IMG/VR virus record: IMGVR_UViG_3300025362_000477
Source: a virus
Taxonomy: Duplodnaviria; Caudoviricetes
Direction: 5' to 3' (one strand)
DNA: 64,000 bases
The translations under genes and the position numbers were made by a program. Shown here one piece after another: positions 6,854-45,685 of this stretch (position 1 is its first letter; the number at the start of each line of letters is the position of its first letter). The notes under the pieces were generated by a model. That model made no database searches and was not told where the DNA came from. It saw only the letters and a list, made by a program, of their open reading frames with translations.

Positions 6854-6906
6854 AATTAAATCCTTTTTACATTTGTTCTAATCTGATAAAAATATCGATG
6901 ATATTA

Positions 6907-7494: not shown

Positions 7495-7558
7495 TACCTA
7501 TTCTCCTTCCTTTTAACTAATTTTAATCAACACATAAAACCTTTATTTTCTTTTTCCA

Positions 7559-8722: not shown

Positions 8723-8765
8723 ATAACAGATAACTCCTTTTTAATTTATTCTATAAACTAAAATG

Positions 8766-10712: not shown

Positions 10713-10714
10713 AT

Positions 10715-24095: not shown

Positions 24096-24257
24096 ATGAA
24101 AAATAATCAAATAACTATTGATATTAATCCAGACATTCGATATGCAGCTAAATTATTAGCTAAAAAATTTGATGTATCTTTAAAATATATTATTCGTATA
24201 GCATTAATTGATATTTTGAAAAAACATAATTGTGATATTCCCGTGGAAGAATTATGA
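24096..24257 (+). CDS. Ribbon-helix-helix-like small protein (53 aa, not in the ORF track)
   Basis: AAGGA SD; MKNNQITTIDINPDIRYAAKLLAKKFDVSLKYIIRIALIDILKK; TGA overlaps the next ATG. Confidence 0.6.
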   Translation: MKNNQITIDINPDIRYAAKLLAKKFDVSLKYIIRIALIDILKKHNCDIPVEEL

Positions 24258-25084
24258 AATTATGTGAATGCGGTTGTGGTAAAGAAGTTAATTCCAAATC
24301 TGCTCGATTTATATCTGGACATAATATTAAAAAAGGACATAAATGGAAACCAAGAACTGATGAACATGCTAAAAAAATTATAAATACTAGAGTTGAAAAT
24401 AAAAGATTATTTGATTTAAATATTCCGTTTTCATTATGTAAATGTGGTTGTGGGAAACGAGTTTCAAAAAGAACTAATGTTTATATTGAAGGTCATCATC
24501 CTAGAATCGCAGGGTTTAAAGATCATAAACATAGTCAAAAAACTAAAGACTTATTTTCAAAAATTTATAAAAGCCAAGAATTTAAAGATAAAGTATTTAA
24601 AACTATGATTGATCGTTATGGAGTTAAACATGCTTTTCAAAATCCAAAATTTATTAAAAAAGCTAATAAGACTTATTTTGAAAAAACAGGATATCATAAT
24701 CCATCAAAAAATCCTTTAGAGATCGCAAAAGCTTTAAAGACTAGAAGAAAAACTAATTTAGAACGAGGTATTTGGATACCAGATGATCAATTACCTATGT
24801 TTCAACTTTACTATAGAAGAGTGTGGCATTATACCAATATAGCAGCGAAGTTAAAATATGATGATGAAAAATTATCAAAAAGAAAACTATGTGGTGTTAA
24901 AAATGGTTTACAATTAGATCATAAGTTTTCTATTCGAAAAGGATATGAAAATAATATTTTACCGCATATAATAGGTAGTCAATACAATATCAATTTAATT
25001 TCATGGGAAGATAATAGATTAAAAAATATCAGTTGTTCTATAACAAAAGAAGAACTTTTTGAACACGTTAACAAGGAAAACTAA
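24254..25084 (+). CDS. HNH-type homing endonuclease with CxCGCG repeats
   Basis: Two CxCGCG motifs; C-terminal QLDHK...NINL...DNRLK. Confidence 0.7.
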   Translation: MKLCECGCGKEVNSKSARFISGHNIKKGHKWKPRTDEHAKKIINTRVENKRLFDLNIPFSLCKCGCGKRVSKRTNVYIEGHHPRIAGFKDHKHSQKTKDLFSKIYKSQEFKDKVFKTMIDRYGVKHAFQNPKFIKKANKTYFEKTGYHNPSKNPLEIAKALKTRRKTNLERGIWIPDDQLPMFQLYYRRVWHYTNIAAKLKYDDEKLSKRKLCGVKNGLQLDHKFSIRKGYENNILPHIIGSQYNINLISWEDNRLKNISCSITKEELFEHVNKEN

Positions 25085-25421: not shown

Positions 25422-25874
25422 ATGAAAATATATTGTGTGAAACCAATCAGTGGTGAGAGTGGAGAAGATGTATTTAATTATTATGAAAAAATTCGAGAAG
25501 TTTTAGTAAATATTGGATATCATGTACTGACTCCTCTATATGGTAAAGGAAAATTACGAACTGAATTAGAATTTAAAGCTCATGGATATGAAAATGATCC
25601 ATTAACAACAAATCATGCTATTTTCTATAGAGATAAATTTTTTGTTCAGCAAAGTGATATATTGTATGCTAATTTTATTGGAGCTAAACGAGTCTCAATT
25701 GGATCTATAATGGAGATTGCTATTGGTCATATGTTGGGGAGACAAGTTGTTGTTGTGATGGAAGATGATAATATTCATCAACATGCTTTTGTTTTAGAGG
25801 CAAGTACTATAGTTTTCAATAATGAACCAGATGCTATTAAATATTTGGATGAAATACAAAACCAAGAGTTTTAA
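25422..25874 (+). CDS. Nucleoside 2-deoxyribosyltransferase-like protein
   Basis: RD...V.QSDIL, SIGSIMEIAIG. Confidence 0.7.
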   Translation: MKIYCVKPISGESGEDVFNYYEKIREVLVNIGYHVLTPLYGKGKLRTELEFKAHGYENDPLTTNHAIFYRDKFFVQQSDILYANFIGAKRVSIGSIMEIAIGHMLGRQVVVVMEDDNIHQHAFVLEASTIVFNNEPDAIKYLDEIQNQEF

Positions 25875-25896: not shown

Positions 25897-26901
25897 ATGA
25901 AAAAACAAATAACTTTTAATGATGTCTTGATTGAACCACAATATAGTGAAATAAAGTCCAGAAATGATGTGATATTAGATACCTATCTATCAGATAATTT
26001 AAAATTTTCATTACCGATATGTGGTGCTAATATGAAAAATATAACTGGATCTAAAATGGCTATTGAACTGTATAAAAATGGCGCCTTTGGTATTTTACAT
26101 AGATTTATGAGTATAGAAAAAAATGTAGAAGAATATTTAAAATGTAAAGATATTGCTTCAACGACATCAGTATCAATAGGAATTAAAGAAAATGAAAAAG
26201 ATCGATTTGTAGAATTGTATCTAAATGGTGCTAGAATCATAACAATAGATATTGCTCATGGACATTCATTGAATATGAAAAATATGATTCAATATATCAA
26301 AGAATATGATCAAGATATTACTGTTATTGCCGGTAATATAGCCACTGGGAGCGCTGCGATTGATTTATATAATTGGGGTGCTGATGTGATTAAGATTGGG
26401 ATAGGACCCTCCCCAGTATGTGAAACACGGAGAAATACTGGAGTAGGTGTATCTCAATTATATGCTTTAAAATCAATAGATAAAACTTTAAAGGATAATG
26501 ATATAAAAATTCCTAGAATTGCTGATGGGGGAATTAAATATGTTGGTGATATAAGTAAAGCTTTAAAGTATTCCGAAATGTGCATGCTCGGTAGTATGTT
26601 ATCTGGATATACTGAAACACCATGTAAATTCTTTCAGCGATTAAATGATCATGGTGAATTGGAATGGTATACTATGTATGGGGGTTCTGCATCAAGTGAA
26701 AATACAGGAAATTCTTCTTTCTCAGAAGGTCGAGTTCAAACTGTTCCATTAAGAGGAAAAGTAAAATATCAATTAAGAAAAATTGAAGATGGTTTGCGAT
26801 CAGCATTTTCTTATTCAAATTCAAAAAATTTATCAGAATATCAAGAAAAATGTAAATTAAATGAAATTAGTATAGCATCTATAAAGGAGAGTAAATTTTA
26901 A
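25897..26901 (+). CDS. GMP reductase / IMPDH-family protein (no CBS domains)
   Basis: TFNDVLIEP, IDIAHGHS, GNIAT, KIGIGPSPVCETR, IADGGI, MLGSML. Confidence 0.9.
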   Translation: MKKQITFNDVLIEPQYSEIKSRNDVILDTYLSDNLKFSLPICGANMKNITGSKMAIELYKNGAFGILHRFMSIEKNVEEYLKCKDIASTTSVSIGIKENEKDRFVELYLNGARIITIDIAHGHSLNMKNMIQYIKEYDQDITVIAGNIATGSAAIDLYNWGADVIKIGIGPSPVCETRRNTGVGVSQLYALKSIDKTLKDNDIKIPRIADGGIKYVGDISKALKYSEMCMLGSMLSGYTETPCKFFQRLNDHGELEWYTMYGGSASSENTGNSSFSEGRVQTVPLRGKVKYQLRKIEDGLRSAFSYSNSKNLSEYQEKCKLNEISIASIKESKF

Positions 26902-27815: not shown

Positions 27816-29105
27816 ATGAAATGTAAAATTTGTTCAAAAGAATATGCGAAATTATCATCATTCATTCAGCATATTATTAAAGGTCATAATATATTATTTT
27901 ATGATTATTGTTTAGAATATGACGATAGTTTAATTAGATGTCAATATTGTAAAAATATAGTCGATCGTGGATGTTCTTATTCATTCTGTGGTAGTAAACA
28001 TTGTAGATCATTTAAAATGCGATTAAGTAGGTACCCATCAGTTAATGATATTTTTAATATCTATGATCCGCTATATTGGATTTCTTTCTATGATAATGAT
28101 ATCATTAAAACCAATGAAAAATTATCATATTTAAAAAATTTTGATGTGTTTTTGAAATCTGACCAATATTTAAAATTGTTTAAAAGTGAAAATTTAGAAT
28201 GTGATTTCTTTCAATTTATTGATAGAATTAAAGATGGGTTAATAAATATTGAAGATTTAAAAAAATATAAAAATATGAATTCTATTGGACGATATAACGT
28301 TTTGGGTTTTAGTGAAGATGTTTTTAAAATTTTAAACCCGTATTTTACCACTAATAAAGAATCATATATTGATCGACATGGAAAAAATAAATGGGAACAA
28401 TATTCCAGTAAATTAGGTAGTACTCAAGTAATATCTTGTTGGCAAACTAAATACTGGATAAATAAAGGTTATTCATATGAAGATGCAAAAAAATTAATTT
28501 CAAAAAATGCAAGTAGAGATATTAATTATTTTATAAATAAATATGGAAAAGAAAAAGGAAAACAGTCATATCAAAATATGATCGAAAAAAGAAAATTTTC
28601 TTTTAGTTTAGAGGGTTATTGTAAAAAATATGGTTCAGATGGATTTAAAAAATACCATGAATGTATTAAAAAGAAGACTTCATGGGTTCCAAATATACAA
28701 AGTAAAGTATCATTAGATTGTATTTCTGAGTTATATACATTATTACCCAATAATATAAAATGCATATATGAAGAACCAATTGAATTTTACGTGTGTGATT
28801 TTTATTTTCCAGAATTGAAATGCGTTATAGAATTTTATGGTGATTACTGGCATCAAAATCCATTGATATCTAATATCGGAGATCGATATCATATTGAAAA
28901 ATGTCATGATAATCATAAAAGACGATCTGAATGTTTATTGAATTCAGGTCGAGTTGATAAAATTATCATTGTGTGGGAATTAGCATATACTAAATCTAAA
29001 ACTGAATGTTTATTAAATATATTAAAATGTTTTAAATTACACCACAAATATAATGAATTAAATTTTCAAAATGGGAATATATTATATAATAAGGAGTTAA
29101 TATAA
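27816..29105 (+). CDS. Free-standing homing endonuclease-like protein between the clamp-loader halves
   Basis: YWINKGY...YFINKYGKEKG; VIEFYGDYWH; homologous to 783..1853. Confidence 0.8.
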   Translation: MKCKICSKEYAKLSSFIQHIIKGHNILFYDYCLEYDDSLIRCQYCKNIVDRGCSYSFCGSKHCRSFKMRLSRYPSVNDIFNIYDPLYWISFYDNDIIKTNEKLSYLKNFDVFLKSDQYLKLFKSENLECDFFQFIDRIKDGLINIEDLKKYKNMNSIGRYNVLGFSEDVFKILNPYFTTNKESYIDRHGKNKWEQYSSKLGSTQVISCWQTKYWINKGYSYEDAKKLISKNASRDINYFINKYGKEKGKQSYQNMIEKRKFSFSLEGYCKKYGSDGFKKYHECIKKKTSWVPNIQSKVSLDCISELYTLLPNNIKCIYEEPIEFYVCDFYFPELKCVIEFYGDYWHQNPLISNIGDRYHIEKCHDNHKRRSECLLNSGRVDKIIIVWELAYTKSKTECLLNILKCFKLHHKYNELNFQNGNILYNKELI

Positions 29106-29506
29106 TGAAAAAAATAACAATTAATTTTAAAGATTTGTTTGATATCTATTCAATATCAGATAAATCCAATGATGTTCATGAATTATCAAAAAAGATTTTT
29201 GTAAAAGATCCAAGTGGTAAATTGGTACCTGTTAGAGGTATCATTAAAAAAACCGATGTGGATATGTGTAAATTTACAACAGAAAATAATATATCTCGAA
29301 AAATGGCATATGGGCATTTACTAAAATGCACAACTGGTTTTAAACAATTAAAAGATATAGATAATAATGATGATATTTATATTTATAATAATCAATCTAC
29401 GAAGATTAAATCAATAGAACCGTGTAACGATATTGATGTTGCTTATGATATTTCTTTAGATGCACCCCATGAATATGTTACACCTGATAATTTAATTCAT
29501 CATAAT
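29105..29506 (+). other. Long split intein C-fragment (blocks B, F, G)
   Basis: MAYGHLL (variant block B), YDISL..H.Y, HHN, +1 Thr. Confidence 0.88.
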
Positions 29507-30325
29507 ACAACAATAGCCAGAATCATTGTTGATGCATTGATTCAAAATGATTCTGATGTGTTAGTAATGAATGGATCCGATAATACTGGTGTTGAATCTA
29601 TGCGAACAACAGTAGCTGGATTCTTAAAATCACCGCCATATCAGGCTAAATTGAAGATTGTATATATTGATGAATTTGATTACACAACTCAGAATGCTCA
29701 AGCGGTTTTGCGTAATATGATGGAAGCATATTCTTCAACGGGTAGATTTATAATAACCGGCAATTACTGGTCTAAGGTAATGGAACCAATTCAATCTCGA
29801 TTCACATTATATGAGATGAAGACCTTACCAAAGGAATTTGTAATTGAATATGCAAAGAATATTCTTACTAAAGAGAAAGTAGAATTTGATGAACAGTCTG
29901 TTGAATTAATCGTTACTAGTTTATTACCTGATGTGCGAAAAGTTGTAAATACTTTGCAAAAAAATACAATTAATAAGAAACTAAAGAAGATTGATGTAAA
30001 TACTATTATCAGTAATGAAAAGAAAATTAGTGGCTTGTTGGTTCAAATAGGTGAACAGATGGGTAGTGCTTCAGAAAAAGCAACTATTAATAGAAACATA
30101 CCTCAGATAACGGAGTTATTAAATACTGGATCAGAACCAGACTATCTCCATATCTATCAGACATTGTTTTTTCATCCAGAGTTACCAGCATGGGCTAAGA
30201 TTAAAGTAAATGAATATTCAAATAAGCATAATTCATGTGTAAATCCAGTTAGTCATTTCATGGCAATGGTATATGATGTAGTTCAATCTGGTATGACATT
30301 CTTTAATTTATTTGGCAAAAAATAA
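29105..30325 (+). CDS. Split-intein C-fragment (134 aa) fused to the clamp-loader C-terminal part
   Basis: ...AYDISLDAPHEYVTPDNLIHHN|TTIARII...IDEFD...AQAVLRN...IQSRF. Confidence 0.93.
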   Translation: MKKITINFKDLFDIYSISDKSNDVHELSKKIFVKDPSGKLVPVRGIIKKTDVDMCKFTTENNISRKMAYGHLLKCTTGFKQLKDIDNNDDIYIYNNQSTKIKSIEPCNDIDVAYDISLDAPHEYVTPDNLIHHNTTIARIIVDALIQNDSDVLVMNGSDNTGVESMRTTVAGFLKSPPYQAKLKIVYIDEFDYTTQNAQAVLRNMMEAYSSTGRFIITGNYWSKVMEPIQSRFTLYEMKTLPKEFVIEYAKNILTKEKVEFDEQSVELIVTSLLPDVRKVVNTLQKNTINKKLKKIDVNTIISNEKKISGLLVQIGEQMGSASEKATINRNIPQITELLNTGSEPDYLHIYQTLFFHPELPAWAKIKVNEYSNKHNSCVNPVSHFMAMVYDVVQSGMTFFNLFGKK

Positions 30326-31468: not shown

Positions 31469-32452
31469 ATGGACATAGATAAACTCAAACACATTCTTAT
31501 AGAAAATAAAATATACGTTTCTAAAAATTCAAAAAATATCATATGTAAATGCCCGTACTGTGGTGACCATCCAGATCCTAATAAAAAAGGACATTTATAT
31601 GTATCAATAAATTCATCATTGCCGGTTGCTCATTGTTGGTTTTGCAATGGTGCTTGGTCGATTCCTCTTCTTATTAAAGACTTGACTGGTGATAAACTCC
31701 TATATAAAGAAGTTATTAGTGATGAAGAACTTCAAAGTTCATATCAAAAAACTAAACGATATTCTGCTAAAAAACGAACTACTATTTATAAAGTCCCAGA
31801 TATTTCCAAAGATAAATTTTCAGAAAAGAAAATGTATATTCGAAAAAGAACAGGAAATAAAGTGACAGCAGAAGAAGTTCCGAATCTGATTTTAAACCTT
31901 ATAGAATTTATTCATATGAATAATTTAGATATCATTGGGGAAGGGAAATTGATATCTGATTGGGAAGCTGATTTATTACATAGAAACTTTGTTTTCTTTT
32001 TGAGTGCCAATCATTCTTTATTGTACTGTAGAAGTATTGATGATAATGCAAAATTTAAATTTAAGAAGATTCCGTTACAAAGTGACCCATTATTATTACT
32101 GGATTATTGGAAAATTCCTATGTGTGAATACGGAAATACAATAGTCTTATCAGAGGGAAATTTCGATATTTTAAGTGAATATGGATTTGATTCATTAGGA
32201 TTAAAAGATAATGTAAGATTGTTTGCAAGCGGAAATACTTTCTCATATGGCTCTTTAATTAAATCAGTTTGTTATGATGAGAGTATTTATAAGGCAGATG
32301 TGATAATTTTGAGCGATACTGATAAACCTGGTTATTGGTATAAAAAGATGTTGCGAGAGAATAGTCATATAATTAAAAGTTGTAAAATTTACATGAATAA
32401 AAGAGGGAAAGATTTTGGTGTATTTCCACCAATTCCCAGTCAGATTATTTAA
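31469..32452 (+). CDS. DNA primase (gp61-like)
   Basis: CPYCGD...HCWFC Zn finger; TOPRIM SEGNFD and SDTD. Confidence 0.85.
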   Translation: MDIDKLKHILIENKIYVSKNSKNIICKCPYCGDHPDPNKKGHLYVSINSSLPVAHCWFCNGAWSIPLLIKDLTGDKLLYKEVISDEELQSSYQKTKRYSAKKRTTIYKVPDISKDKFSEKKMYIRKRTGNKVTAEEVPNLILNLIEFIHMNNLDIIGEGKLISDWEADLLHRNFVFFLSANHSLLYCRSIDDNAKFKFKKIPLQSDPLLLLDYWKIPMCEYGNTIVLSEGNFDILSEYGFDSLGLKDNVRLFASGNTFSYGSLIKSVCYDESIYKADVIILSDTDKPGYWYKKMLRENSHIIKSCKIYMNKRGKDFGVFPPIPSQII

Positions 32453-32894: not shown

Positions 32895-33668
32895 ATGTCA
32901 ACTGAAACTGATTACCAACTCACTATAAGTCGTGATGACTTTTCAAAATTTTTAACTCTTTTGAAAGTTTTTGAAAATTATTGTAGTGATTGTGATATCC
33001 AAAATGGAATGATAAGATGTAGGATTAATGATCGTCAAGCTATCATATCAATGAATCTAGTCTCTATTCTTGAAAATAATTCAATGCAATGGAGTTTGAT
33101 GAAGAATAAAATCGGTCTATTGAAAGCATTTGAATTGGATGATAATGTACAAATGGAAGATAAAACTATTAATATCCATTGTAATGAAAGTAACTATGAA
33201 TTCATTGATCCACTTTCAAAAATCATATTCCGTAAGCCGGTTCAGAAATATATTGATAATAAATTTATTATTGATTCAGAATTTAATGGGATGATTAGCT
33301 GTCAAGAAGAGAATCTATTGTTCTCTTATGATATTAATAACTATCTCAAAAAGAGAATGTCTAATGTTGTTCAGGGTTTCCAGAGCGATATTTTGAAATG
33401 TAAAATCATTGAGAATAATGGTAATCTAACGGCAGAAACTAGAAATCATGAAGATTCTTGTAATTTTGCTAGTAATATTATTCTCAATCGTGAAGTTGCA
33501 GACTGTGAATTTAAAATGATTGCTATGCCATTTCTATTGGATGTTGCATCTGATATGAAATTGAGTGTATACCAGGTATCTAATGATGTATTCCTGTGTC
33601 GCTTTGATCAGTCATTTTATGGAGTTCCTATTAATATTTATACACAGGTGAAAGTGACTTCTCTGTAA
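32895..33668 (+). CDS. Putative sliding clamp (gp45/PCNA-like)
   Basis: Size 257 aa, alternating beta pattern, context of clamp loader, polymerase, primase and helicase. Confidence 0.6.
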   Translation: MSTETDYQLTISRDDFSKFLTLLKVFENYCSDCDIQNGMIRCRINDRQAIISMNLVSILENNSMQWSLMKNKIGLLKAFELDDNVQMEDKTINIHCNESNYEFIDPLSKIIFRKPVQKYIDNKFIIDSEFNGMISCQEENLLFSYDINNYLKKRMSNVVQGFQSDILKCKIIENNGNLTAETRNHEDSCNFASNIILNREVADCEFKMIAMPFLLDVASDMKLSVYQVSNDVFLCRFDQSFYGVPINIYTQVKVTSL

Positions 33669-33704: not shown

Positions 33705-35123
33705 ATGAATATTGATAATACATGGAATTCTGGTCCTGGCAGATACATGGTAGCAGGCGCTGATTGCATGGTATCATTACTAGGTAATTTCATTGATAAG
33801 CATAGTGATGGTGAATTCTTTAAAGACCCAGAAGTAGCCAATTTTCTAGAAAATTCTATAGATAAATACCTCTATAGTTTTGGTACTGGTTTATCATATA
33901 AGACTCGAAAGATGTCAAAGAAGCATTCTGAAAAGATTGCTAGGGAAGTTAGAAAAATATCTTCTCGTCCATTTATGAAGAATACTAAACTTTATATTGA
34001 TAGTGGTGGATTTCAGGTGGCTATGGGAGCTGTTGAAACAAAGGATATGCCTAAATTTATTGAAACATATCATAAATTCATTACTGAAAATCATGAATCT
34101 TTTAGTTATGCTTTTAGTTTGGATTTACCACCTGGACCATCAAGTGCGTCTCAGATATTTGATTCTTATCAGCAAATTGAAGATTTGAATCGTTTATCAT
34201 ATCGGACTAGTGCTAATCTGCCACAAAATATTAAAGATAAAATGATTTATATTCATCATTTCAGAACTCCATCTCTATATGATACATGGTCAAAATTTCT
34301 ATGGGAAGAGGGGATGGCTGATGGTTTTAAGAATTTCGCAACTGGTGGTTTGGTAGCAAATCTCGCAACAGATATGACTATACCTGTTATTATTTATAGT
34401 ATCCCCCTTTCGGAGATTCTGAAATATGCAATGAGTAGAGGCATGAAAGAATTTAATTTTCATGTCTTGGGTGGGGCTAATTTTATTGATGTGTTTTATC
34501 ATAAGCTTTTTTCTTATCATATTAAACGTGTTCATGACGTAAAAGTCAACATTACCTATGACTCAAGTGCCATCTTTAAAGCACTTGCAGTAGGGCGTTT
34601 CGTACCAGTATTCAAGCGTGATGGTACTTTAGTTAAGATGGATCTTAGAAGTAATAATCTGCATCTGAGATTTGATGGGATGGATACTGTTAATGATACT
34701 GTTTATAAATTATTAAATGATATTGCTGATCATTATAATTTCAAAAGATTAAATCCAGAAGATCATCCAATATATAATTCTGAGACTGGAACATTAACTA
34801 GATCAGTTCATATGTATTTAATATGTTATATGCTTCGAATTTATAGACATTTAGAATTAATATCAGAAGATTTTATTGATGGAGTTTATCCTTTATATGA
34901 ACAAGGTAAGATTCAAGATTTTGATAATAAGTGTTATCAATTAGCTCAAAAATTTAATCAGGGAAAAAATACTAAAAAACAAAAAGCTAAAATTTCTAGC
35001 ATCTATCGGTCATTAGGTATTTTAACTGATCTTGATAGGGATTATAATAAATTTCTTATTCATAAGTTTATGTCTAATGATGATATTTCAATTATGGCTG
35101 ATGGCGGAAACCCCAAATTTTAG
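33705..35123 (+). CDS. tRNA-guanine transglycosylase-fold protein (TGT/DpdA-like)
   Basis: IDSGGFQ, SLDLPP, ATGGL, FHVLG, YDSS match TGT motifs in order. Confidence 0.75.
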   Translation: MNIDNTWNSGPGRYMVAGADCMVSLLGNFIDKHSDGEFFKDPEVANFLENSIDKYLYSFGTGLSYKTRKMSKKHSEKIAREVRKISSRPFMKNTKLYIDSGGFQVAMGAVETKDMPKFIETYHKFITENHESFSYAFSLDLPPGPSSASQIFDSYQQIEDLNRLSYRTSANLPQNIKDKMIYIHHFRTPSLYDTWSKFLWEEGMADGFKNFATGGLVANLATDMTIPVIIYSIPLSEILKYAMSRGMKEFNFHVLGGANFIDVFYHKLFSYHIKRVHDVKVNITYDSSAIFKALAVGRFVPVFKRDGTLVKMDLRSNNLHLRFDGMDTVNDTVYKLLNDIADHYNFKRLNPEDHPIYNSETGTLTRSVHMYLICYMLRIYRHLELISEDFIDGVYPLYEQGKIQDFDNKCYQLAQKFNQGKNTKKQKAKISSIYRSLGILTDLDRDYNKFLIHKFMSNDDISIMADGGNPKF

Positions 35124-35135
35124 GAGAAATATATT

Positions 35136-35546
35136 ATGGAATTACTTAAACTTGATTGGAATAATTATCATAGATACATATATAAATTATCTGAAAAAAT
35201 TAAAAATGTTGATGATGATACATTACTTTATAAATATATAGCTGGTCTTGAATCTGATGACATGTTTGTTGCTGTTCATTTGAGCCATATATTAAATATA
35301 CCAGTAGTTACTGATATAAATTTATTATCATTATTAACAAATTTTACCGATAGTGCCGACCAGGTACTTGTCGTTTCTAACATTGTAGAAACTGGTTTGA
35401 AGTTTGAATCAATTGCAGATCTAATTGGATCTAAATTTGATACAGCTGTAATTTTTAAAGATAAGAACTCAAAATATAAACCTACATATTATGTGAAAAC
35501 ACCAAAAAATCACATTTATTTTCCATGGGAAAAGTGTGGTTTATAA
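35136..35546 (+). CDS. Degenerate type I phosphoribosyltransferase-like protein
   Basis: VLVVSNIVETG (cf. DDIxDTG); WIxFPWE-like C-terminus HIYFPWE. Confidence 0.6.
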   Translation: MELLKLDWNNYHRYIYKLSEKIKNVDDDTLLYKYIAGLESDDMFVAVHLSHILNIPVVTDINLLSLLTNFTDSADQVLVVSNIVETGLKFESIADLIGSKFDTAVIFKDKNSKYKPTYYVKTPKNHIYFPWEKCGL

Positions 35547-35562: not shown

Positions 35563-37023
35563 ATGTTAACTGAACATTTTATTAATCTATGTTGTACTGT
35601 ATTACTTAGTGAACATTCCAAGTTTAATGATATTGTCAGGATAGATATTGCATCTATCTTGGCATCTCATGAAGACGAGGATGTTCCATTAGGATTTAGA
35701 AAGAAATTTACTTTAGCAAAATCTATTCTTCGACTCAGAATGGAACAGAAATCTAAGGAACAAGCATTAGATAATTTAGTTACAAGTAAACATTTTGATG
35801 AATTGAGTTCATTTCTTAAAATGCTTGCATTAAGAGATATACCTGAAGAAAAAGTTGATTCAGCTATAAGTCAGATATGTGATAAAAAACAATTAGTTAA
35901 ATTACAGATGGATCTTCCTGCATTAGAAGAATTTGTAACTAAGTTCAATACTAATTCATTTACTGATTCGAGTGAGACTCTCACATATTGGAATGAATTA
36001 ATATCAAAATTACATAGTAGTGTACTAGAAGAAAAAAGAAAAGAATCTAGAAATAATATCAAAGAACTTGATCTGTTTGGTGATGATTATTCTAACGTTT
36101 TAAATCAAATCGAAATTAGTTATTCTGGGCAAAACTCAGTATCAACTGGATATTCTGAACTTGATACTTATTTGAATGGTGGATTTGAACCTACTAGATT
36201 GTATATATTTGGTGGTTGTAGTGGTGATGGTAAATCAGTTCTTTTAAATAATTTTACTAGAAATGCTGTTGAGCATAATAAAGATAAAACTGGCCCAATG
36301 AGTATGTTTATATCTTTTACAATGGAAAATTTAATTGATGAATCATTAGTTCGATTATATTGTTCTGTTGAAAATAAAGATGTAAAAGAAATGATCGAAA
36401 ATTTCAGTCATGAACGAACTATTATAGAACGAACTTTGAAGACATGGCAGATGGATAATAATGCTATGATATGTAGTGCTTATTTTGCACCTACTTTAAC
36501 ATCTGTTAGTGATTTAGTTTCATATTGTGATATTATGAAAGCAAGATATAAGGGTCGAGCTATTCTTAAAGGTACATATATTGATTATTTAGATCTATTG
36601 CGAGCTGGTTCTGTTTTTGATTTACATAGATTAGAGATGGGTCAAATTACAATTGATATGAAAGTTGCTGCTGTACAGCTAGGAATCCCTGTAGTTACTG
36701 TCACTCAACTTAATCGTGGCGCATATGATCCTAAAGAGAATCTTAGTTTAGCCAATATGAGTGAATCGATTAAAAAAGTAGAACATTCAGATTTTGTGGG
36801 AATATTAAAGAGTATTCAAAATGAAATCGAAGAGGGTGAAGATATCCGAGTAGTACAAGAATATGGCGATTTAAAAATTATCATTGGGAAAAATAGAAGT
36901 GGTCCAAAAAATAAAACTATCAACTTAAAAACTATGTTCTCACATTTTAGAATCGATGATATTGCTAGGGAAGTTTCTGTCCCATTCGTAAATAGAAATA
37001 TAATCGAGGGGGCCGTTATTTAA
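35563..37023 (+). CDS. Replicative DNA helicase (DnaB/gp41-like)
   Basis: GCSGDGKS Walker A, IDYLDLL, TVTQLNR, KNRSGP. Confidence 0.92.
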   Translation: MLTEHFINLCCTVLLSEHSKFNDIVRIDIASILASHEDEDVPLGFRKKFTLAKSILRLRMEQKSKEQALDNLVTSKHFDELSSFLKMLALRDIPEEKVDSAISQICDKKQLVKLQMDLPALEEFVTKFNTNSFTDSSETLTYWNELISKLHSSVLEEKRKESRNNIKELDLFGDDYSNVLNQIEISYSGQNSVSTGYSELDTYLNGGFEPTRLYIFGGCSGDGKSVLLNNFTRNAVEHNKDKTGPMSMFISFTMENLIDESLVRLYCSVENKDVKEMIENFSHERTIIERTLKTWQMDNNAMICSAYFAPTLTSVSDLVSYCDIMKARYKGRAILKGTYIDYLDLLRAGSVFDLHRLEMGQITIDMKVAAVQLGIPVVTVTQLNRGAYDPKENLSLANMSESIKKVEHSDFVGILKSIQNEIEEGEDIRVVQEYGDLKIIIGKNRSGPKNKTINLKTMFSHFRIDDIAREVSVPFVNRNIIEGAVI

Positions 37024-37119: not shown

Positions 37120-38583
37120 ATGAAAAAAAAATATTCAACTATATTAAAAGAGAGTCTGGTTAATTTTGATGGTATTCAAAAATCAACTGGTACCGTAGAT
37201 GACATTTTAAATTTTAAGGGAAAAGGAAATCTCCCAACTCATAAAAAAGCAAGTAATGTTGTATCAGTTCTTGAAGATATGTATTACAAAGAAGATAATG
37301 ATGTCCCATCTAATTTTATGAGAGAGGGCGAAGAAACTGAAGTTGCAGTAGGCACTAAAGCAGTATCTAAAATTGTTCCTGATATAGATAAAGAGAAAGT
37401 ATCAGATCTCAATAAAGCTGATGGTGCAGCTCATGCTAACCCACAGAAACAGAATCAGTTCAAAGATACCATCGTTGATGCCTCGACTGATGATAAAACT
37501 TATGCCACAGAAGACATGGATGATCTTGGTGAAGATCTGGAAGAAGGTATGGATGATCTTGGTGTAGATCTGGAAGAAGATGGCGATATTGAAGAATCTC
37601 TTTTTGAAGAAGGGGATGCTGATTTAGATTCTGAACCTATTGGTGAAAATCTAGAAAATGAACCAGACCATGAAGCTCAGGGTGATCCATCTCGAGATAT
37701 CAATGCTGATAATTCTTACAATAACAATAATACTCTTGGAGATGAAGAGATTAATGGAATGGAAGAAGAAACTGAAGGTCTCCCAAAAACCATGGAATCT
37801 GATGGTGATTTGATGGGTGAGATGGATGATGAACTTGATTCTGAAGAAGATGAAGATGAAGATGATCTTTCAAGTCTACCCGATGACGCTATAGATGGTG
37901 GAGGGGAAGATGATGATATATCTGAAATGGAAGATGAAAGTGAGGTTGGTGGAGATGAAGAAATTGATGATGGGATGGATGATGAGGTTGAAGCTGAACC
38001 AGAAGCTAATCTAAGTGATGAAGAAGACTTGGGTGGTGGAGATGATTTGGGAGATGAAGGCTTTGGTGATGAAGCTGCTCAGATCGATGCTCAAATCGCA
38101 GATCTAGTTGCTAAAAAATTAGAACTGCAAGGTGGAGCTGCTTCTACACCAATTGAAGGTGAAGAAAACTTGGGTGGAGAAGAAGACCTAGGTAGTGAAG
38201 AGGATCTTGGTGATACATCTACAGAAGATGAAGCTGATCTTGCTAGCGTTCCTGGTGAAGAAGATGACATTGATGAAGCTGAAGAAGACCTAGGTGAAGA
38301 GGAAGATGGCGAAGAAGAAGGTGAAGAGGAAGATGGCGAAGAAGAAGGTGAAGAGGAACCTAAAGAAGGTGAAGGTGAAGGAGAAGGAGAAGGAGAAGAT
38401 GCACCTATACTAGATGTTGACGGTGCAGATGCTGGAGAAGAAGATGAAGATGAAGATGATTCGGTTGCTACTCGAGAATCAATTGAAGAATCAGTTGTTG
38501 AACGATTAATTAGAGAAATGAAATTAGAAGAAAGTTCAGATTATTCTGAAGTTGATTTAGATATCGATGACATAGAAGACTAA
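37120..38583 (+). CDS. Extremely acidic low-complexity protein (possible head core/scaffold)
   Basis: Long D/E/G-rich tract; lies upstream of the portal; followed by a terminator. Confidence 0.6.
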   Translation: MKKKYSTILKESLVNFDGIQKSTGTVDDILNFKGKGNLPTHKKASNVVSVLEDMYYKEDNDVPSNFMREGEETEVAVGTKAVSKIVPDIDKEKVSDLNKADGAAHANPQKQNQFKDTIVDASTDDKTYATEDMDDLGEDLEEGMDDLGVDLEEDGDIEESLFEEGDADLDSEPIGENLENEPDHEAQGDPSRDINADNSYNNNNTLGDEEINGMEEETEGLPKTMESDGDLMGEMDDELDSEEDEDEDDLSSLPDDAIDGGGEDDDISEMEDESEVGGDEEIDDGMDDEVEAEPEANLSDEEDLGGGDDLGDEGFGDEAAQIDAQIADLVAKKLELQGGAASTPIEGEENLGGEEDLGSEEDLGDTSTEDEADLASVPGEEDDIDEAEEDLGEEEDGEEEGEEEDGEEEGEEEPKEGEGEGEGEGEDAPILDVDGADAGEEDEDEDDSVATRESIEESVVERLIREMKLEESSDYSEVDLDIDDIED

Positions 38584-39576: not shown

Positions 39577-41646
39577 ATGAATGATATTGTTAATTCTATC
39601 AAAGCTTCAATATTAGGAACTAAATCCAGTGAAATTGATAGGGAAATTGATTCTGCATTTAAATCAATTGAAAAATATAGCATCAGTGCAGATAGAAATA
39701 AATACATTGAAACTATTAATAAAATGATTTCTAAAACTGGAGTGGATGCTCCTACTGATATATTGAGGAATATTCAAGGTAATCCGCAAGTACAAAACTT
39801 TGATCAATCTGGACGAGTATCAAGATATGTTGAATATGATGCTATAACGAAAAAGATATCATATTGTCAAAGAGCATTAGAGACATTAGTTGATAATATT
39901 ATATCACCTGATGATATAACCAAAAGAAGTATTGAGTATGTTATAGATAATTCTCAGAGTGAAGAATCTGATAATGTGAAGACTGCTATTGCTAGATGTA
40001 AAAAGATCGAAAAGAAAATCAATTTAGATGCTAAGATTAAACGTATCATTAAAACAGTATTAAAGAAAGGTGATAATTTTATTGAACTGTTGGTTTCTCC
40101 TAAAGGTGAGAATGCATTAACAGTTATCCAGGAAGGTGTATCATATGATGTTACCGATAAAATTTTATCTATGGGTTCTCTAATTGAAAGTACGTTACAT
40201 TATACTACAACTACTAAGAATGAAAATCATAAAGAGATTATCAATGAACATACCTTCAATGCTAAAGTTCAATTAGAATATACTTCAATGGGTGGGCCTT
40301 TTGCTGGTTTATCAGCTTCAACTTCAAATAACAGACCAAATCAGATTCCATATTATAATGGACAAAGTCAATCTACTGATGGTCATATTGCTAGTTCAGA
40401 TGATCCTCCAGGAAAAGATAATAGATTTAAAGCTAAATATGATAAGGATTCATCTATTAAAGATGATAATGTATTACGATTGAGAGATATTTTTACAGCC
40501 GTTCATGATCCAAAGTATGTCATAAGATTAGAAACTGAAAGATTTAAATCATGTCTGGGTTATTTAGTGTTTCCGAAAGTCGATCCTCGTTTAGCTCAAG
40601 CGAGCAGTCTTATGTCGGCAGGTGCTCAGACAGTTGACGGTTTATGTTTAGATATTATAAAACAATTGCAATCTAAACTAAAAACTTCTAATGATAATAT
40701 TAAAATGTCTGATGAGTTAAGAACTGTTGTTCTTAGTTATTTATCGATTATTGAAAAGAATGAAGATTTAAAAGTGAGATATGTACCACCTGAATTAATG
40801 GTTCATTGGAGATTGAATCCAGAATCTTATGATCCTTATGGTGAATCTATATTTGATTGTGTAAATTTTGATTGTCGGTTACTTATGGCCTTGAAAACTG
40901 CCAAAACAATTAAACAATTAACTTTTGCTACTGATAAAAGGGTGATTTCAGTAGAGACAGGTTTACCTCGAGATGCAAAAAATATAATTGAATCAATTAA
41001 AGAAAGTATATCAAAGCGTAAAGTATCGATTGATAGCATGGGAAGTATTAATTCAATACCGTCTCAGATTCCGACTTTTGAAACTATTTATATTCCTATG
41101 CGAGATGGTAAGAAATTTGTCGAGATAGATAATCAACAATGGGGACAAAATCCACAAGAGGATGTTGAAAATCTTAAATTTATTAGAGATAATATTGTAG
41201 CAAATTTGGGAGTTCCTGCTCCATATTTAGGTCTAGAAGAAAATACGTCCAATAGATCTTTACTTACAGTTGAAAATATTAATTTTTGTAGAACTATTAT
41301 TTCTTTTCAAAAAGAATTATCAGTTCCTCTAAAAGAATTATTTCAAAAGATCATTGATTTAGCATTTCCAGAATCATCAGATCAATTAAATTCGATAAAT
41401 ATCACATTCCCAGAACCAAAAATTAGTCCATATGAACATCAAATGGAATATGTTGAACAAATACAGAGATTGATTGAAGCTTTGAAAACTATGGGAATAC
41501 CGGAAAATTTCTTAAAGAAAAAATATTTGCCCAATATAAATTGGGATGAAGTTACTAAATTTGCTGCTCAGGAAAAACTTGATAAAGAGATTGGTGAACA
41601 GCCAGCTGATCAAGATCAAATGGGTGGAATGGGAGGAATATATTAA
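39577..41646 (+). CDS. Portal protein (T4 gp20-like)
   Basis: YGESIF, ETIYIP.RDG, LGVPAPYL; position before protease and capsid. Confidence 0.85.
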   Translation: MNDIVNSIKASILGTKSSEIDREIDSAFKSIEKYSISADRNKYIETINKMISKTGVDAPTDILRNIQGNPQVQNFDQSGRVSRYVEYDAITKKISYCQRALETLVDNIISPDDITKRSIEYVIDNSQSEESDNVKTAIARCKKIEKKINLDAKIKRIIKTVLKKGDNFIELLVSPKGENALTVIQEGVSYDVTDKILSMGSLIESTLHYTTTTKNENHKEIINEHTFNAKVQLEYTSMGGPFAGLSASTSNNRPNQIPYYNGQSQSTDGHIASSDDPPGKDNRFKAKYDKDSSIKDDNVLRLRDIFTAVHDPKYVIRLETERFKSCLGYLVFPKVDPRLAQASSLMSAGAQTVDGLCLDIIKQLQSKLKTSNDNIKMSDELRTVVLSYLSIIEKNEDLKVRYVPPELMVHWRLNPESYDPYGESIFDCVNFDCRLLMALKTAKTIKQLTFATDKRVISVETGLPRDAKNIIESIKESISKRKVSIDSMGSINSIPSQIPTFETIYIPMRDGKKFVEIDNQQWGQNPQEDVENLKFIRDNIVANLGVPAPYLGLEENTSNRSLLTVENINFCRTIISFQKELSVPLKELFQKIIDLAFPESSDQLNSINITFPEPKISPYEHQMEYVEQIQRLIEALKTMGIPENFLKKKYLPNINWDEVTKFAAQEKLDKEIGEQPADQDQMGGMGGIY

Positions 41647-42758: not shown

Positions 42759-43451
42759 ATGCCAGAAATTATTACACGAAGAGATATGAAGAAGTCTGTT
42801 TTTTTAAATATTGTTACAGAATCAGCTGTGTTTTCTGCACCTGAAAAGGTTAGGAAATATACAGATGGTAAAGTAGTATTTGAAGCATATCTTCAAGAAG
42901 CTGATGCTAAGAATCAGAATAAAAGATATTATCCACGAAGAGTTTTAGATATTGCTATGAATAAAATAAACGATAAAATTAAACGTCGTGCATTTTTAGG
43001 TGAATTAGATCATCCAATTACTGATGATCAGGTCCGTCAAACAACTGTGATGTATCAAAATGTATCTCATATCATTCGTGAATGGGGCTGGGATGGTGGT
43101 ATGATCAAAGGTGTTGTTGAGACTACTCCTTATTCACAGAGTGGAAAAATGTTATCAGGAATGATTTATGATCGAATTCCGGTTGGGTTTTCTCTCCGTG
43201 GACTAGCTGATGTTGAAGATAGAGGAACTTATCAAGAGGTTATGGATCCTCTTATTGTTATATGTTATGATAGTGTTTCCGAACCAAGTCATGCATCTGC
43301 AACAATACAAGAAATACGAAATGAAAACGTAATCCATATAATAAACGAATCAAACCATCTTATTAGATGTAGTAACGGAAAAAGTTACATACCAAACTAC
43401 TTTGATGAATTAATTGAACGACGCATACTTAATTTAACGAAAAGATACTAA
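42759..43451 (+). CDS. Prohead core protease (gp21-like)
   Basis: KNQNKRYYP, LGELDHP, GFSLRG, DSVSEPS. Confidence 0.92.
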   Translation: MPEIITRRDMKKSVFLNIVTESAVFSAPEKVRKYTDGKVVFEAYLQEADAKNQNKRYYPRRVLDIAMNKINDKIKRRAFLGELDHPITDDQVRQTTVMYQNVSHIIREWGWDGGMIKGVVETTPYSQSGKMLSGMIYDRIPVGFSLRGLADVEDRGTYQEVMDPLIVICYDSVSEPSHASATIQEIRNENVIHIINESNHLIRCSNGKSYIPNYFDELIERRILNLTKRY

Positions 43452-43804: not shown

Positions 43805-44214
43805 TGGATATTGAAAAAACAAAAGTCATAGATTCAAATGCAATTAACGGAACCGATGCATCTAAGATTATTTTAATGGATGGATTAATAGAGTATTTTT
43901 CGCCACTGTTTTATGAAGACCTCAGAAAGAAACAGGGGCAAGTACGAAGTAATGAGGATGATATCAAGAAATTGAAATCTCACATTGAGCGAAATAGAAA
44001 AATTCTTGTTAAATTACACAATGATATTATGATTGAGAATCTCAAATGCAATATTTTGAAAGAGATTCAGTATCTTAGTAAACTTGATGTATTATATGGT
44101 AAGAATAAAATTACAGTTCAAAGTATCATTTCAGCTATTGATAAATTAAGCCTTGAAAATTTGAAGAAGAGATTGGCTCTCCTTCAAAAACTTGTCAAAA
44201 CCAAGAGAGGATGA
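43804..44214 (+). CDS. Small coiled-coil protein (possible scaffold)
   Basis: ORF track; between protease and capsid genes. Confidence 0.5.
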   Translation: MDIEKTKVIDSNAINGTDASKIILMDGLIEYFSPLFYEDLRKKQGQVRSNEDDIKKLKSHIERNRKILVKLHNDIMIENLKCNILKEIQYLSKLDVLYGKNKITVQSIISAIDKLSLENLKKRLALLQKLVKTKRG

Positions 44215-44218
44215 TAAT

Positions 44219-45685
44219 ATGAAAACAATGCTAAAAGAAGCATACAAATTCACACTTAAGAGCACAGGTATCGATCCTTCGAAACCAGGTGCAATTCGTG
44301 AGATTCTTGTGAATGATCAGCATTTTGATACGTATATTCGCTCACTTTCTGAGGGTATCGATACTAAAGATCAGACTGCCTTCAAAGTCCTAAGTGAGAA
44401 TACACGTAGAGCACTGCTAGAGAATTCAATGTATCAACTTAACCCATATGAAACACTGGCACTGCCTCTGTTACGCGTATTCTTCCCGAAGACTATTGCT
44501 AAAGAGCTGGTAACTGTTGTTCCTATGGATAAACCCGAAATTGTTCGTGGTTTCATTCGTGCAACATTCAAACGTTTTGGAGATGGTACTAATTACCAGG
44601 CACCTTCAAATACTGACATTTCACGCGGTCCTGATATTACTGTTCCTCTAACGAGCGCAGTTGATATTCCTTGTACTGAAGATCTGTTAGCTAAAGCTGG
44701 ATTGAATTCTGATATTGCTCATATCGAAAAAGATTTCACTATTACTGGTGTTATCATGGGTTCTACCAATGAAGAAGTTCAGGTTAATATTGCACCTACA
44801 GTTGATGGTGAATTTTCTGCATCAGTAACTAATGCTGCTGGTACTATTACTGAAACTCTAACTGGTCGTATCAATCTGCTTACAGGTACACTGGAATGTG
44901 CTTCTGTTGGTGCTCAGATTAAGAAAATTGCATTCAATTGCACAGTTTCTCTTGAAGAGAATACAATTAACCCTCGCGTAACTTTCAATATTGATAAGCT
45001 ACGTTTGATTGCTAAAGATCGTCAGATCAGCACAGAGTGGACAATTCAGATGGAACAGGATATTAAAGCCCTGTTTAATGTTGACGTACAGGCCGAGTTG
45101 GTTTCTGTTATTGGTCAGCAAATTGTTCTTGATGTAGACCGTGAAATTGTTAACTCACTTCTATATGCTTGTGAACGTTTGAATGGCGCAAGTCATAATA
45201 AAACATTTGACAAGAATCCTGCTAGTTATAGTCCTCAGTACACTTGGGGTCCTAAACAGTGGATGGAAAATGTTCTGCCTGTTCTTAATGAACTGTCAGC
45301 AGCTGTATACACTGATACTAACATCGCGGCTGCAAACGTTCTCGCTTGTAACCCTCTAGATGCAACTATCTTTGAATCTCTGAATAACTTCCGTTATACA
45401 GGTAAGAGTGATGAAGATGGTGTAGTTGGTTATGAATCAGCGACTGTTGCTAATGGGAAATGGAAAATGCTGGTAAGTTCAGTAGTTCCTCAGGGTAAAG
45501 TGCTTAATATTTATAAACCTGCTGAAGAAATGAAAGCAGTTTATATATTTGCTCCATATGTGCCTGCCGTGTTAACACCCTATCCCCTAGGAAACGTTCC
45601 TTCACTGACTGTTCTAAGTCGTTATGGTACTCAGCTGATACGTCCTCAGGGTATTTCAGTCCTGAACGTAATTCAGACTACCTAA
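44219..45685 (+). CDS. Major capsid protein (gp23-like, HK97 fold); start revised to MKTML
   Basis: IAKELVTVVPMDKP, RQISTEWTIQMEQDIKA, IVLDVDREI, YIFAPYVP, SRYG; strongly biased codon usage. Confidence 0.93.
   Translation: MKTMLKEAYKFTLKSTGIDPSKPGAIREILVNDQHFDTYIRSLSEGIDTKDQTAFKVLSENTRRALLENSMYQLNPYETLALPLLRVFFPKTIAKELVTVVPMDKPEIVRGFIRATFKRFGDGTNYQAPSNTDISRGPDITVPLTSAVDIPCTEDLLAKAGLNSDIAHIEKDFTITGVIMGSTNEEVQVNIAPTVDGEFSASVTNAAGTITETLTGRINLLTGTLECASVGAQIKKIAFNCTVSLEENTINPRVTFNIDKLRLIAKDRQISTEWTIQMEQDIKALFNVDVQAELVSVIGQQIVLDVDREIVNSLLYACERLNGASHNKTFDKNPASYSPQYTWGPKQWMENVLPVLNELSAAVYTDTNIAAANVLACNPLDATIFESLNNFRYTGKSDEDGVVGYESATVANGKWKMLVSSVVPQGKVLNIYKPAEEMKAVYIFAPYVPAVLTPYPLGNVPSLTVLSRYGTQLIRPQGISVLNVIQTT

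Follow-up and report, generated by a model that had tools for sequence, protein, structure and literature searches.

A DpdA-like transglycosylase gene beside the replicative helicase in a clade of uncultured T4-like jumbo phages

Why would a large phage keep a base-exchanging transglycosylase among its replication genes, and on which substrate would such an enzyme act? The question is raised by IMG/VR record IMGVR_UViG_3300025362_000477 (Duplodnaviria; Caudoviricetes), of which a stretch of 64,000 nucleotides, referred to here as the window, was analyzed. The window has a G+C content of 30% and comes from an uncultured T4-like large phage. On its plus strand it encodes a 472-aa protein, P0001 (33705-35123), followed by a 136-aa protein, P0002 (35136-35546), with the fold of the phosphoribosyltransferases (PRTases) XGPRT and HGXPRT. 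An earlier note, made from the letters alone, had seen motifs of tRNA-guanine transglycosylases (TGTs) in P0001 and a degenerate PRTase in P0002, and had proposed a divergent DNA base-exchange system coupled to replication. The predicted fold of P0001, its catalytic residues, its kinship with the phage enzyme DpdA2 and its missing zinc site all speak for this proposal, as do a fixed position on the helicase side of the replication module and a recurrent linkage to QueE- and QueC-like genes, each of them read from sequence. We estimate with a probability of roughly 0.65 that P0001 represents an undescribed subfamily of the phage DpdA-type DNA guanine transglycosylases, nearest to DpdA2. By analogy with the characterized enzymes, it most likely inserts a 7-deazaguanine into the phage DNA. 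The system extends phage DNA camouflage of a known kind by one new branch and introduces no new principle.

Active site, fold and nearest relatives of P0001

All five TGT motifs named in the earlier note are present in the translation of 33705-35123. DSGGFQ (residues 99-104; 33999-34016, plus strand, as are those that follow) holds the general acid/base aspartate, D99, with equivalents in D89 of Escherichia coli Tgt, D72 of the DpdA of phage 9g and D76 of the DpdA2 of Vibrio phage nt-1. LDLP (residues 139-142; 34119-34130) contributes the base-reading D140, which aligns with nt-1 D112 (FDEIP) and 9g 'LDGIG' and which we take to be the equivalent of E. coli D143 and Z. mobilis D156. GGL (G214-L216; 34344-34352) is part of the base-pocket loop, HVLG (residues 253-256; 34461-34472) contains the invariant H253, and YDSS (residues 285-288; 34557-34568) supplies the nucleophile, D286, equivalent to E. 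coli D264 (FDCV), 9g D215 (CDSSS) and nt-1 D266 (YDSS). The 'DSS' after the nucleophile strand is common to P0001 and the phage enzymes DpdA1 and DpdA2, while tRNA TGTs have 'DCV'. In an alignment of 30 homologues (36-80% identical), the residues D99, S100, Q104, D140, G214, G215, H253, L255, G256, G257, D286 and S287 are invariant, so that the motifs are not a product of chance and none of the three catalytic aspartates has been lost. DpdA and TGTs keep the same three, for acid/base catalysis, base reading and nucleophilic attack, and mutating the first or third kills DpdA (PMC10164549). The same alignment has no conserved Cys or His residues in the pattern of the TGT zinc site (CxCxxC...H), which is also missing from 9g DpdA and nt-1 DpdA2; E. 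coli Tgt has CDCYTC at 302-307.

Clustering at 90% leaves at least 230 members in the family of P0001, all of them from metagenome or metagenome-assembled-genome-type records and none with a Pfam domain. P0001 itself matched no Pfam family, including the TGT family PF01702 at E <=1, found nothing relevant in the PDB by sequence (as a single sequence or as a profile), and had no tblastn match in 50,697 GenBank phage records. An identical protein is encoded on a 220,894-bp database contig. No longer, fused forms (827-2360 aa) were found in the search, which is weak evidence.

An AlphaFold2 model of P0001 built on the family alignment (predicted local distance difference test score, pLDDT, 89; predicted template modeling score, pTM, 0.90) consists of a (beta/alpha)8 barrel at about residues 10-330 and a C-terminal helical domain (330-460), after which the chain is disordered. 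The first match in a Foldseek search of the PDB was the TGT of Z. mobilis (E 7.8e-6). Exhaustive VIA-align comparison gave Z scores of 16.8 for archaeal TGT, 16.0 for bacterial TGT, 14.9 for QTRT2, 14.1 for bacterial DpdA (7UI4) and 13.7 for Cap10, with unrelated TIM barrels reaching at most 11.7. By its predicted structure, P0001 is a TIM barrel of the TGT superfamily at the level of the fold. The best viral model in BFVD was R9TGF0 of Vibrio phage nt-1 (E 1.1e-8), which is nt-1 ORF390 (464 aa; YP_008125322), located between FolE and QueC in the nt-1 record. This protein is the DpdA2 of Hutinet et al. 2019 (PMC6884629), and in E. coli it was shown to insert dPreQ0 into plasmid DNA (PMC10516641, Table 3).

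Comparison of the P0001 family with a 32-member alignment of the DpdA2 family by hhalign gave an E value of 5.6e-5 (probability 66%) over 364 columns, near the full length of both, from the N-terminal YV-xG strand through every catalytic motif to the helical C-terminal domain. In a further set of hhalign comparisons using one common set-up for all family pairs, the P0001 family matched DpdA2 at E 8.5e-5 (60%, 239 columns), gammaproteobacterial TGT at E 4.4e-4 (33%, 32 columns) and 9g-type DpdA1 at E 9e-4 (23%, 211 columns), with probabilities of 17% for DpdA1 against bacterial TGT and 1% for DpdA2 against DpdA1. By these values, the distance between P0001 and DpdA2 is about that between accepted DpdA subfamilies. 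The only PHROG match of P0001 is a local one (residues 90-143, 2.7e-6) to phrog_887, named 'queuine tRNA-ribosyltransferase', which is the DpdA1 family of phage 9g (9g matches it at 2e-98). P0001 is not itself a member of DpdA2, since neither it nor the family members P0094 and P0116 match phrog_10773 at E <=0.01, a profile that nt-1 DpdA2 and two relatives match at 1e-100 to 1e-211; the relation is visible from profile to profile only. For DpdA3 and DpdA4, the reference proteins of which are CGPG_00065 of phiST and HVTV1_69 (DUF6610, PF20314), the Pfam scan of P0001 brought up no PF20314 match. Across the comparisons with DpdA1, DpdA2, bacterial TGT and archaeal TGT that the earlier note had called for, DpdA2 came out best by profile and by viral fold.

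P0001 and nt-1 DpdA2 (phrog_10773) are of similar length (472 and 464 aa), both combine a barrel with a helical C-terminal domain and lack the zinc motif, and they have in common the motifs DSGG(L/F)Q, (F/L)D(E/L)(I/P)P, H(M/V)LG and (S/T)YDS(S/T). Both are encoded by large T4-like myoviruses. They differ in sequence (about 14% identity) and in setting: the nt-1 gene lies inside a FolE-QueD-ArcS-QueC cluster, whereas that of P0001 keeps its place beside DnaB, where QueE-like and QueC-like genes are the only pathway genes nearby. DpdA2 modifies <0.1% of G (PMC10516641). DpdA1 of 9g and the Queuovirinae (phrog_887) resembles P0001 in its Asp triad, the 'CDSSS' after the nucleophile strand and the absence of a zinc motif, but it has 317 aa, lacks the long C-terminal helical domain and is encoded beside a full FolE-QueD-QueE-GatQueC cluster, which P0001 is not. 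The bacterial DpdA of Salmonella Montevideo (7UI4), which acts on DNA (PMC10164549), is similar to P0001 in fold (Z 14.1) and in its equivalents of the triad, Asp95, Asp130 and Asp256. Unlike P0001, it keeps the zinc site and needs the ParB-like ATPase DpdB, in place of which P0001 has as neighbors the DnaB helicase and, in one subclade, the pseudo-PRTase.

The top structural scores raise the alternative that P0001 is a tRNA-guanine transglycosylase that acts in infected cells on host or phage tRNAs and remodels their anticodons (at position 34, or at 15 as in archaea). All branches of the superfamily share the same catalytic residues, and in jumbo phages tRNA genes are often found in other parts of the genome, while our tRNA scan covered the 64-kb window, where it found none. 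Set against this are the missing PF01702 match, the profile match to bacterial TGT over 32 columns only, and the architecture of the protein, which has an unrelated helical domain in place of the zinc subdomain and of the tRNA-binding C-terminal parts, and no PUA domain. The gene is also fixed in a replication module beside DnaB. We consider action on tRNA very improbable, the least favored of the readings discussed here.

Two further features of the family were observed. P0001 ends in a disordered tail with the terminal residues PKF (pLDDT <50 at residues 464-472), and across the family the end of the protein (35083-35123 in the window) is acidic and disordered (DDxS) and leads to a conserved hydrophobic-x-F or W located at the C-terminus or next to it, which, as a sequence pattern, looks like a short docking motif. 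The family-B DNA polymerase (PolB) ends in ILLF in the window and in RLLW in the relative L035; comparison of the PolB and P0001 ends made no common peptide evident, and many window proteins end in F, while their L035 counterparts do not. The relative L009 encodes two tandem P0001 paralogues (497 and 468 aa; 6491-9535), both with DSGG(Y/F)Q, FHVLG and YDSAG.

Gene context and 7-deazaguanine synthesis genes

The genomic context is the strongest evidence for the base-exchange reading. In the window, P0001 is preceded on the plus strand by a primase (31469-32452; phrog_19847, 1.2e-18), a 117-aa open reading frame (ORF) and a probable sliding clamp of 257 aa (32895-33668), and P0002 is followed by a DnaB-like replicative helicase (35563-37023, plus strand; PF03796 1.6e-21, phrog_19 1.5e-36). 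Clamp, P0001, P0002 and DnaB follow each other closely, separated by 36, 12 and 16 nt. The clamp assignment is a lead taken from language-model look-alike clusters named PCNA or gp45-like (score 0.95-0.96); hidden Markov model (HMM) searches of Pfam and PHROG gave no match for this protein. PolB (20875-24051) and a clamp-loader-like AAA protein (29105-30325) are encoded further upstream. The helicase is at most 28% identical to anything in the GenBank phage records searched.

Relatives were compared in a context set of 13 IMG/VR loci, whose transglycosylases are 26-38% identical to P0001, and six closer contigs (49-80%). Throughout this set, DnaB follows the transglycosylase gene in the same orientation, either immediately or after one to a few other genes; one further contig, L002, stops short of the helicase. 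Downstream of DnaB, the relatives have the same acidic protein, portal, protease and capsid genes as the window. Of the primase-clamp-helicase setting described in the earlier note, the whole is present in the window and the helicase neighbor is general, but adjacency to clamp and primase is kept in the closest relatives only. A precedent for such a position is found in phage 9g, where the DpdA gene adjoins the clamp and polymerase genes.

Comparison of the window with three relatives, for which dS is saturated and the values are rough, gave ratios of nonsynonymous to synonymous substitution (dN/dS) of 0.09-0.14 for the transglycosylase, 0.15-0.32 for DnaB, 0.15-0.21 for the clamp and 0.10-0.41 for P0002. 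Amino-acid identity to the same relatives is 74-80% for the transglycosylase and 58-69% for the helicase. Within the block, constraint is strongest on the transglycosylase, ahead of the helicase, and the gene belongs to the core of this uncultured T4-like jumbo-phage clade.

All but one of the 13 IMG/VR loci (12 of 13) have a QueE-like radical-SAM gene (223-307 aa) 1-4 kb upstream of the transglycosylase gene and in the same orientation. The top NCBIfam matches of this gene are four or five different QueE models, and the N-termini of the two copies that were read, from G002 and G003, carry the signature E-x-F-x-S-x-QGEG. In L037, genes for QueE, a nucleoside deoxyribosyltransferase (NDT)-like protein, an adenylate-kinase-like nucleoside monophosphate (NMP) kinase and then QueC are found 5-7 kb upstream of the transglycosylase gene. 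The window encodes a QueC-like protein of 252 aa at 14432-15190 on the minus strand (PF06508 1.5e-8, 34.8 bits with a cut-off of 22; TIGR00364 4.6e-8), with a second NDT-like gene beside it (16312-16710, minus strand). A DUF7487/DUF559 homing-endonuclease-like gene (15165-16235, minus strand) splits this pair, which is uninterrupted upstream of the transglycosylase gene in L036, with the QueC-like orthologue 5.5 kb upstream. From its sequence and linkage, the window QueC-like protein is a probable pathway partner of P0001. It has SSGLDS, IPNRN and a Cys cluster, and its product is uncertain, since it lacks the YPDC motif of canonical QueC (compared with PMC13329287).

The missing YPDC motif bears on a second alternative, in which P0001 would resemble the Cap10 protein of type IV cyclic-oligonucleotide-based antiphage signaling systems (CBASS). 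In that case, a QueC-like enzyme would link 7-carboxy-7-deazaguanine (CDG) to a protein N-terminus and the TGT-like enzyme would handle it; the protein-bound 7-deazaguanine would perhaps be transferred to a target. The outcome would be a modified or tethered protein at the replisome instead of simple DNA camouflage. QatC and Cap9, relatives of QueC that modify proteins (PMC13329287), are likewise non-canonical, and the window QueC-like protein also has a weak QatC match (2e-4). Cap10 scores about as high as bacterial DpdA in the fold comparison (13.7 and 14.1), and it lacks the zinc site while keeping the DS and D residues and the catalytic Asp/His pair, the counterparts of which, H253 and D286, are invariant in the P0001 family; for this reason, the active site alone cannot tell a DNA-directed from a Cap10-like enzyme. 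The annotated neighbors are replication and head genes, with no CD-NTase or other CBASS or Qat component among them, and most of the distant relatives have QueE as the nearby partner with no QueC-like gene close. In addition, the best viral relative of P0001 is the DNA-acting DpdA2, and no candidate client protein was identified. A protein-directed role is improbable on this evidence, only slightly less so than one on tRNA.

Whole-record searches for synthesis genes were made in five IMG/VR relatives. QueC and QueD were found in G001 (244 kb, 78% complete), QueC in G003 (124 kb, 40% complete) and QueE only in G002, a complete genome of 312 kb with terminal repeats; FolE was found in none of the five. 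A weak 'QueC' match in G002 proved to be a NadE-like PP-loop protein (SGGIDSS) and was rejected. Across the clade, the transglycosylase is universal and the synthesis genes are partial and variable. This pattern fits the use of host precursors, possibly with bases at the level of CDG. Cui et al. (PMC10516641) raise the same idea for DpdA3 phages, in which the pathway stops at CDG, and the DpdA3 of Cellulophaga phage phiST and of Campylobacter phages replaces G completely (PMC10516641). By description, DpdA3 is a very divergent TGT-like gene between 7-deazaguanine genes and polymerase genes, accompanied by a MazG/dUTPase-like dNTP hydrolase and a pathway ending at CDG, which resembles the QueE without canonical QueC seen here and the dGTP diphosphohydrolase of G001 (described below). 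A 259-aa phiST protein, possibly DpdA3, matches the P0001 model weakly (BFVD rank 41, E 0.078).

The degenerate PRTase and the nucleotide-pool genes

P0002 is PRTase-like by PHROG (phrog_8995, 4.3e-5) and by NCBIfam (xanthine PRTase, 6e-4). The top PDB matches of its AlphaFold2 model (pLDDT 92.5) in Foldseek are 6-oxopurine PRTases (E 2e-9 to 1e-6, TM 0.7-0.78), with HGXPRT of S. solfataricus, the purine PRTase of P. horikoshii, XGHPRT of H. pylori and XGPRT of E. coli among them (ids include 5bqo, 1vdm and 7kl6). P0002 resembles E. coli Gpt and the phrog_8995 PRTases in fold, length and termini, with W at residue 8, a helix of the HLSH type and a C-terminal FPWE where Gpt has WIEQPWD. A search of 1.84 billion representatives returned 231 relatives, only five of them close. 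The wider group is a family of phage PRTases of about 140 aa with GIPRGG, LIVDDIxDTGxT and a C-terminal WIxFPWE, as in the VSRGG, VIDDLVDTGGT and WIEQPWD of E. coli Gpt, and by sequence P0002 derives from these small XGPRT-like proteins.

The earlier note had reported that the gene lacks the acidic pair of the loop that binds phosphoribosyl pyrophosphate (PRPP). Residues 79-87 indeed read VVSNIVETG and the alignments agree, but the degeneracy goes further, as the loop that binds pyrophosphate (PPi) has been lost too. The remnant of the PPi loop, ESDD (residues 39-42; 35250-35261, plus strand), lies in a GLESDD stretch where canonical enzymes have GIPRGG or VSRGG, so that the (P/S)RGG of Gpt-type enzymes has become ESDD. 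The remnant of the PRPP motif, SNIVETG (residues 81-87; 35376-35396, plus strand), stands for DDIxDTG, and the DDLVDTGGT of Gpt corresponds to SNIVETGLK. P0002 and six close relatives (seven of seven) have (E/D/N/T/P)(S/T/V)DD for PRGG and V(S/A)N(I/V)xx(T/S)G for VDDIxDTG, while about 35 canonical relatives in the alignment keep both motifs. With these two coordinated replacements, the PPi loop and the acidic pair for the ribose and Mg of PRPP are gone.

In all members of the degenerate subclade with visible context (L017, L035, L137, L139, L146 and L147), the gene lies between the transglycosylase and DnaB, a position confirmed in five independent contigs; one member is present in 74 blocks of the collection. 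A canonical PRTase relative occurs in an unrelated phage context, and distant members of the clade have no P0002-type gene at the transglycosylase-DnaB site. The dN/dS of P0002 is in the same range as that of the helicase, indicating purifying selection. Given this fixed position, the restriction to one subclade and the selection, P0002 is a lineage-specific, maintained pseudoenzyme coupled to the transglycosylase gene, and its confinement to that subclade makes it an addition that does not define the system. We infer that it is a putative non-catalytic accessory of the transglycosylase that binds a purine or purine nucleotide. A predicted complex of P0001 and P0002 scored 0.00, below the mark, which counts neither for nor against binding. 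QTRT2, the non-catalytic eukaryotic TGT partner, offers a functional analogy as a dead protein beside an active transglycosylase; it differs in being a TGT paralogue, whereas P0002 has a PRTase fold and is a putative partner only.

P0002 could still be an enzyme that has the PRTase fold and a remodeled active site. Where the PPi loop used to be, the new acidic residues could accommodate a cationic ligand, for example preQ1 or the archaeosine base, or a different phosphoribosyl or deoxyribosyl donor could be used. The coordination of the changes, their conservation in every subclade member, the purifying selection, and the retention of the TG of the 5'-phosphate loop and of a C-terminal FPW(E/Q) would all agree with this. 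P0002 nevertheless lacks the two elements with which all type I PRTases hold Mg-PRPP, and no precedent was found for a PRTase rebuilt in this manner, so we regard the possibility as unlikely.

The PRTase-like gene also enters a third alternative to post-replicative base exchange by P0001. Here, 7-deazapurine (deoxy)nucleotides would be built in the nucleotide pool, as in producers of toyocamycin and tubercidin, and then incorporated by the DNA polymerase, with the TGT-like enzyme exchanging bases on a nucleotide or nucleoside, or only polishing residual G. The NDT-like, GMP-reductase-like and PRTase-like genes would be the heart of the pathway. In Streptomyces, GMP reductase and PRTase are signature tailoring enzymes on the way from preQ0 or CDG to 7-deazapurine nucleotides (bioRxiv 10.64898/2026.04.15.718813). 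The window encodes a 150-aa NDT-like protein (25422-25874, plus strand; PF05014 1.7e-5) and a 334-aa GMP-reductase-like protein (25897-26901, plus strand; NF003966 3.4e-63, full length), and the order PolB, NDT-like, GMP-reductase-like is seen in the window and its closest relatives L035, L146 and L147. A DUF7487 endonuclease-like gene and a 116-aa ORF stand between PolB and the NDT-like gene in the window, and the order is missing from five distant IMG/VR relatives. The GMP-reductase-like gene could equally serve a G-to-A rebalancing of the pool for a genome of 30% G+C.

Links between 7-deazaguanine and nucleotide genes recur elsewhere and lend this route some weight. Besides the second NDT-like gene adjoining the QueC-like gene of the window and the L037 row with its NDT-like and NMP kinase genes between QueE and QueC, G001 has QueC, a dATP/dGTP diphosphohydrolase (PF18909, 1.6e-34, MazZ-type) and an NDT-like gene in a row (L021, G001:129000-148999, at 9999-11316), an arrangement that, judged by sequence, would deplete dGTP. 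L001 also encodes the diphosphohydrolase, as a weaker copy placed between its transglycosylase and DnaB genes. On the unrelated viral contig L014 (4127-14199), a very distant 538-aa TGT-like protein (DSGGFQ) is encoded within 8 kb of a PRTase, FolE and QueE; this PRTase is canonical and XGPRT-like (GITRGG, VDDINDTGAT), and provides a second, independent link between PRTase and 7-deazaguanine genes. Adenylosuccinate-synthetase (PurA/PurZ-like) genes were observed in G002 (G002:C1:179055-179924; L144, L145) and G004 (G004:C1:28510-29769; L143), one copy being a 345-aa ORF in the complete 312-kb genome. They could point to 2-aminoadenine (Z) genomes or to conversion of 7-deaza-IMP-type nucleotides, and together with the NDT-like, NMP kinase and diphosphohydrolase genes they keep the pool route alive as a rival or a complement.

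Several findings nonetheless make it doubtful that the pool is the main route, a degree less likely even than the rebuilt PRTase. P0002 cannot start such a route, because its PRPP- and PPi-binding residues are lost, and no TGT-family enzyme acting on free nucleotides is known. The transglycosylase is universal in the clade, while the genes for NDT-like, GMP-reductase-like and PRTase-like proteins have a patchy distribution. According to published work, every 7-deazaguanine modification known from phage DNA takes place after replication (PMC10516641).

Other genes of the window are those of a T4-like phage, with a T4-type portal (39577-41646), a prohead protease (42759-43451) and a gp23-type capsid protein (44192-45685); ThyX and exonucleases are also encoded. 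A fragment of a B12-dependent ribonucleotide reductase (1914-3644, minus strand) ends in an intein-splicing domain, and inteins and HNH domains were seen in the portals of the relatives L036, L037 and L147. Directly 3' of the helicase, a 487-aa protein (37120-38583, plus strand) is extremely acidic, with long D/E/G-rich runs and no family match; its counterpart occupies the same place in the relatives, with likeness restricted to the C-terminal end. The conserved genes are interspersed with four DUF7487-containing genes (5221-6243, minus; 15165-16235, minus; 24254-25084, plus; 45751-47472, minus), of which two also encode a DUF559 nuclease domain. The sites of these four vary between the close relatives L035 and L146, as expected of mobile homing endonucleases.

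Proposed mechanism and what it would mean for the phages

By analogy with TGT and DpdA enzymes, D286 of P0001 would attack C1' of a deoxyguanosine in the phage DNA while D99 protonates the leaving guanine. A free 7-deazaguanine base, presumably read by D140 and the GGL loop, would then resolve the covalent intermediate. The incoming base may be CDG or a derivative, made from host precursors by the phage QueE-like and QueC-like enzymes. The outcome would be phage DNA that carries 7-deazaguanine and blunts host nucleases. With the gene fixed beside that of the replicative helicase and presumably co-expressed with the replisome, modification probably takes place close behind the fork. P0002, which would no longer make nucleotides, could hold the incoming 7-deazaguanine or mop up the released guanine. 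A bolder version, which we regard as unlikely, makes P0002 a dedicated base-handling subunit, itself non-catalytic, of a DNA transglycosylase tied to the replisome, bringing in a 7-deazaguanine derived from CDG or catching the guanine that is expelled. With the NDT-like, GMP-reductase-like and non-canonical QueC-like enzymes, it would support a wholesale replacement of G by a 7-deazapurine so far undescribed in DNA.

Several points weigh against DNA base exchange by P0001. The likeness of P0001 to any characterized TGT or DpdA is remote, with no Pfam or PDB sequence match and hhalign probabilities of 60-66%. Its structural Z scores are slightly higher for the tRNA enzymes (16.8 and 16.0) than for bacterial DpdA (14.1), and the protein-directed Cap10, likewise without a zinc site and with the Asp residues retained, scores about the same as DpdA. 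The pathway is incomplete in the complete genome G002, which has no FolE, QueD or true QueC, and the window QueC-like protein departs from the canonical enzyme in its missing YPDC. The accessory role of P0002 is hypothetical, and the P0001 family as a whole is known from uncultured phages only.

Modification of DNA with 7-deazaguanine is a major counter-defence of phages, and DpdA is treated as its signature gene. Neither the P0001 family nor the pseudo-PRTase was found described in a literature search. Since the family has no counterpart in GenBank phages and no Pfam or PHROG name of its own, HMM-based surveys would miss a T4-like jumbo-phage clade that probably modifies its DNA. The absence of FolE, QueD or canonical QueC beside QueE raises the question of which base is inserted and where its precursor comes from. 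With P0002, a phage DpdA would have its first candidate for an accessory protein, a salvage enzyme turned pseudoenzyme. In these phages, the P0001 enzyme is a core gene of the replication module and not a movable accessory, and its being more constrained than the helicase suggests that the modification may be obligatory for them.

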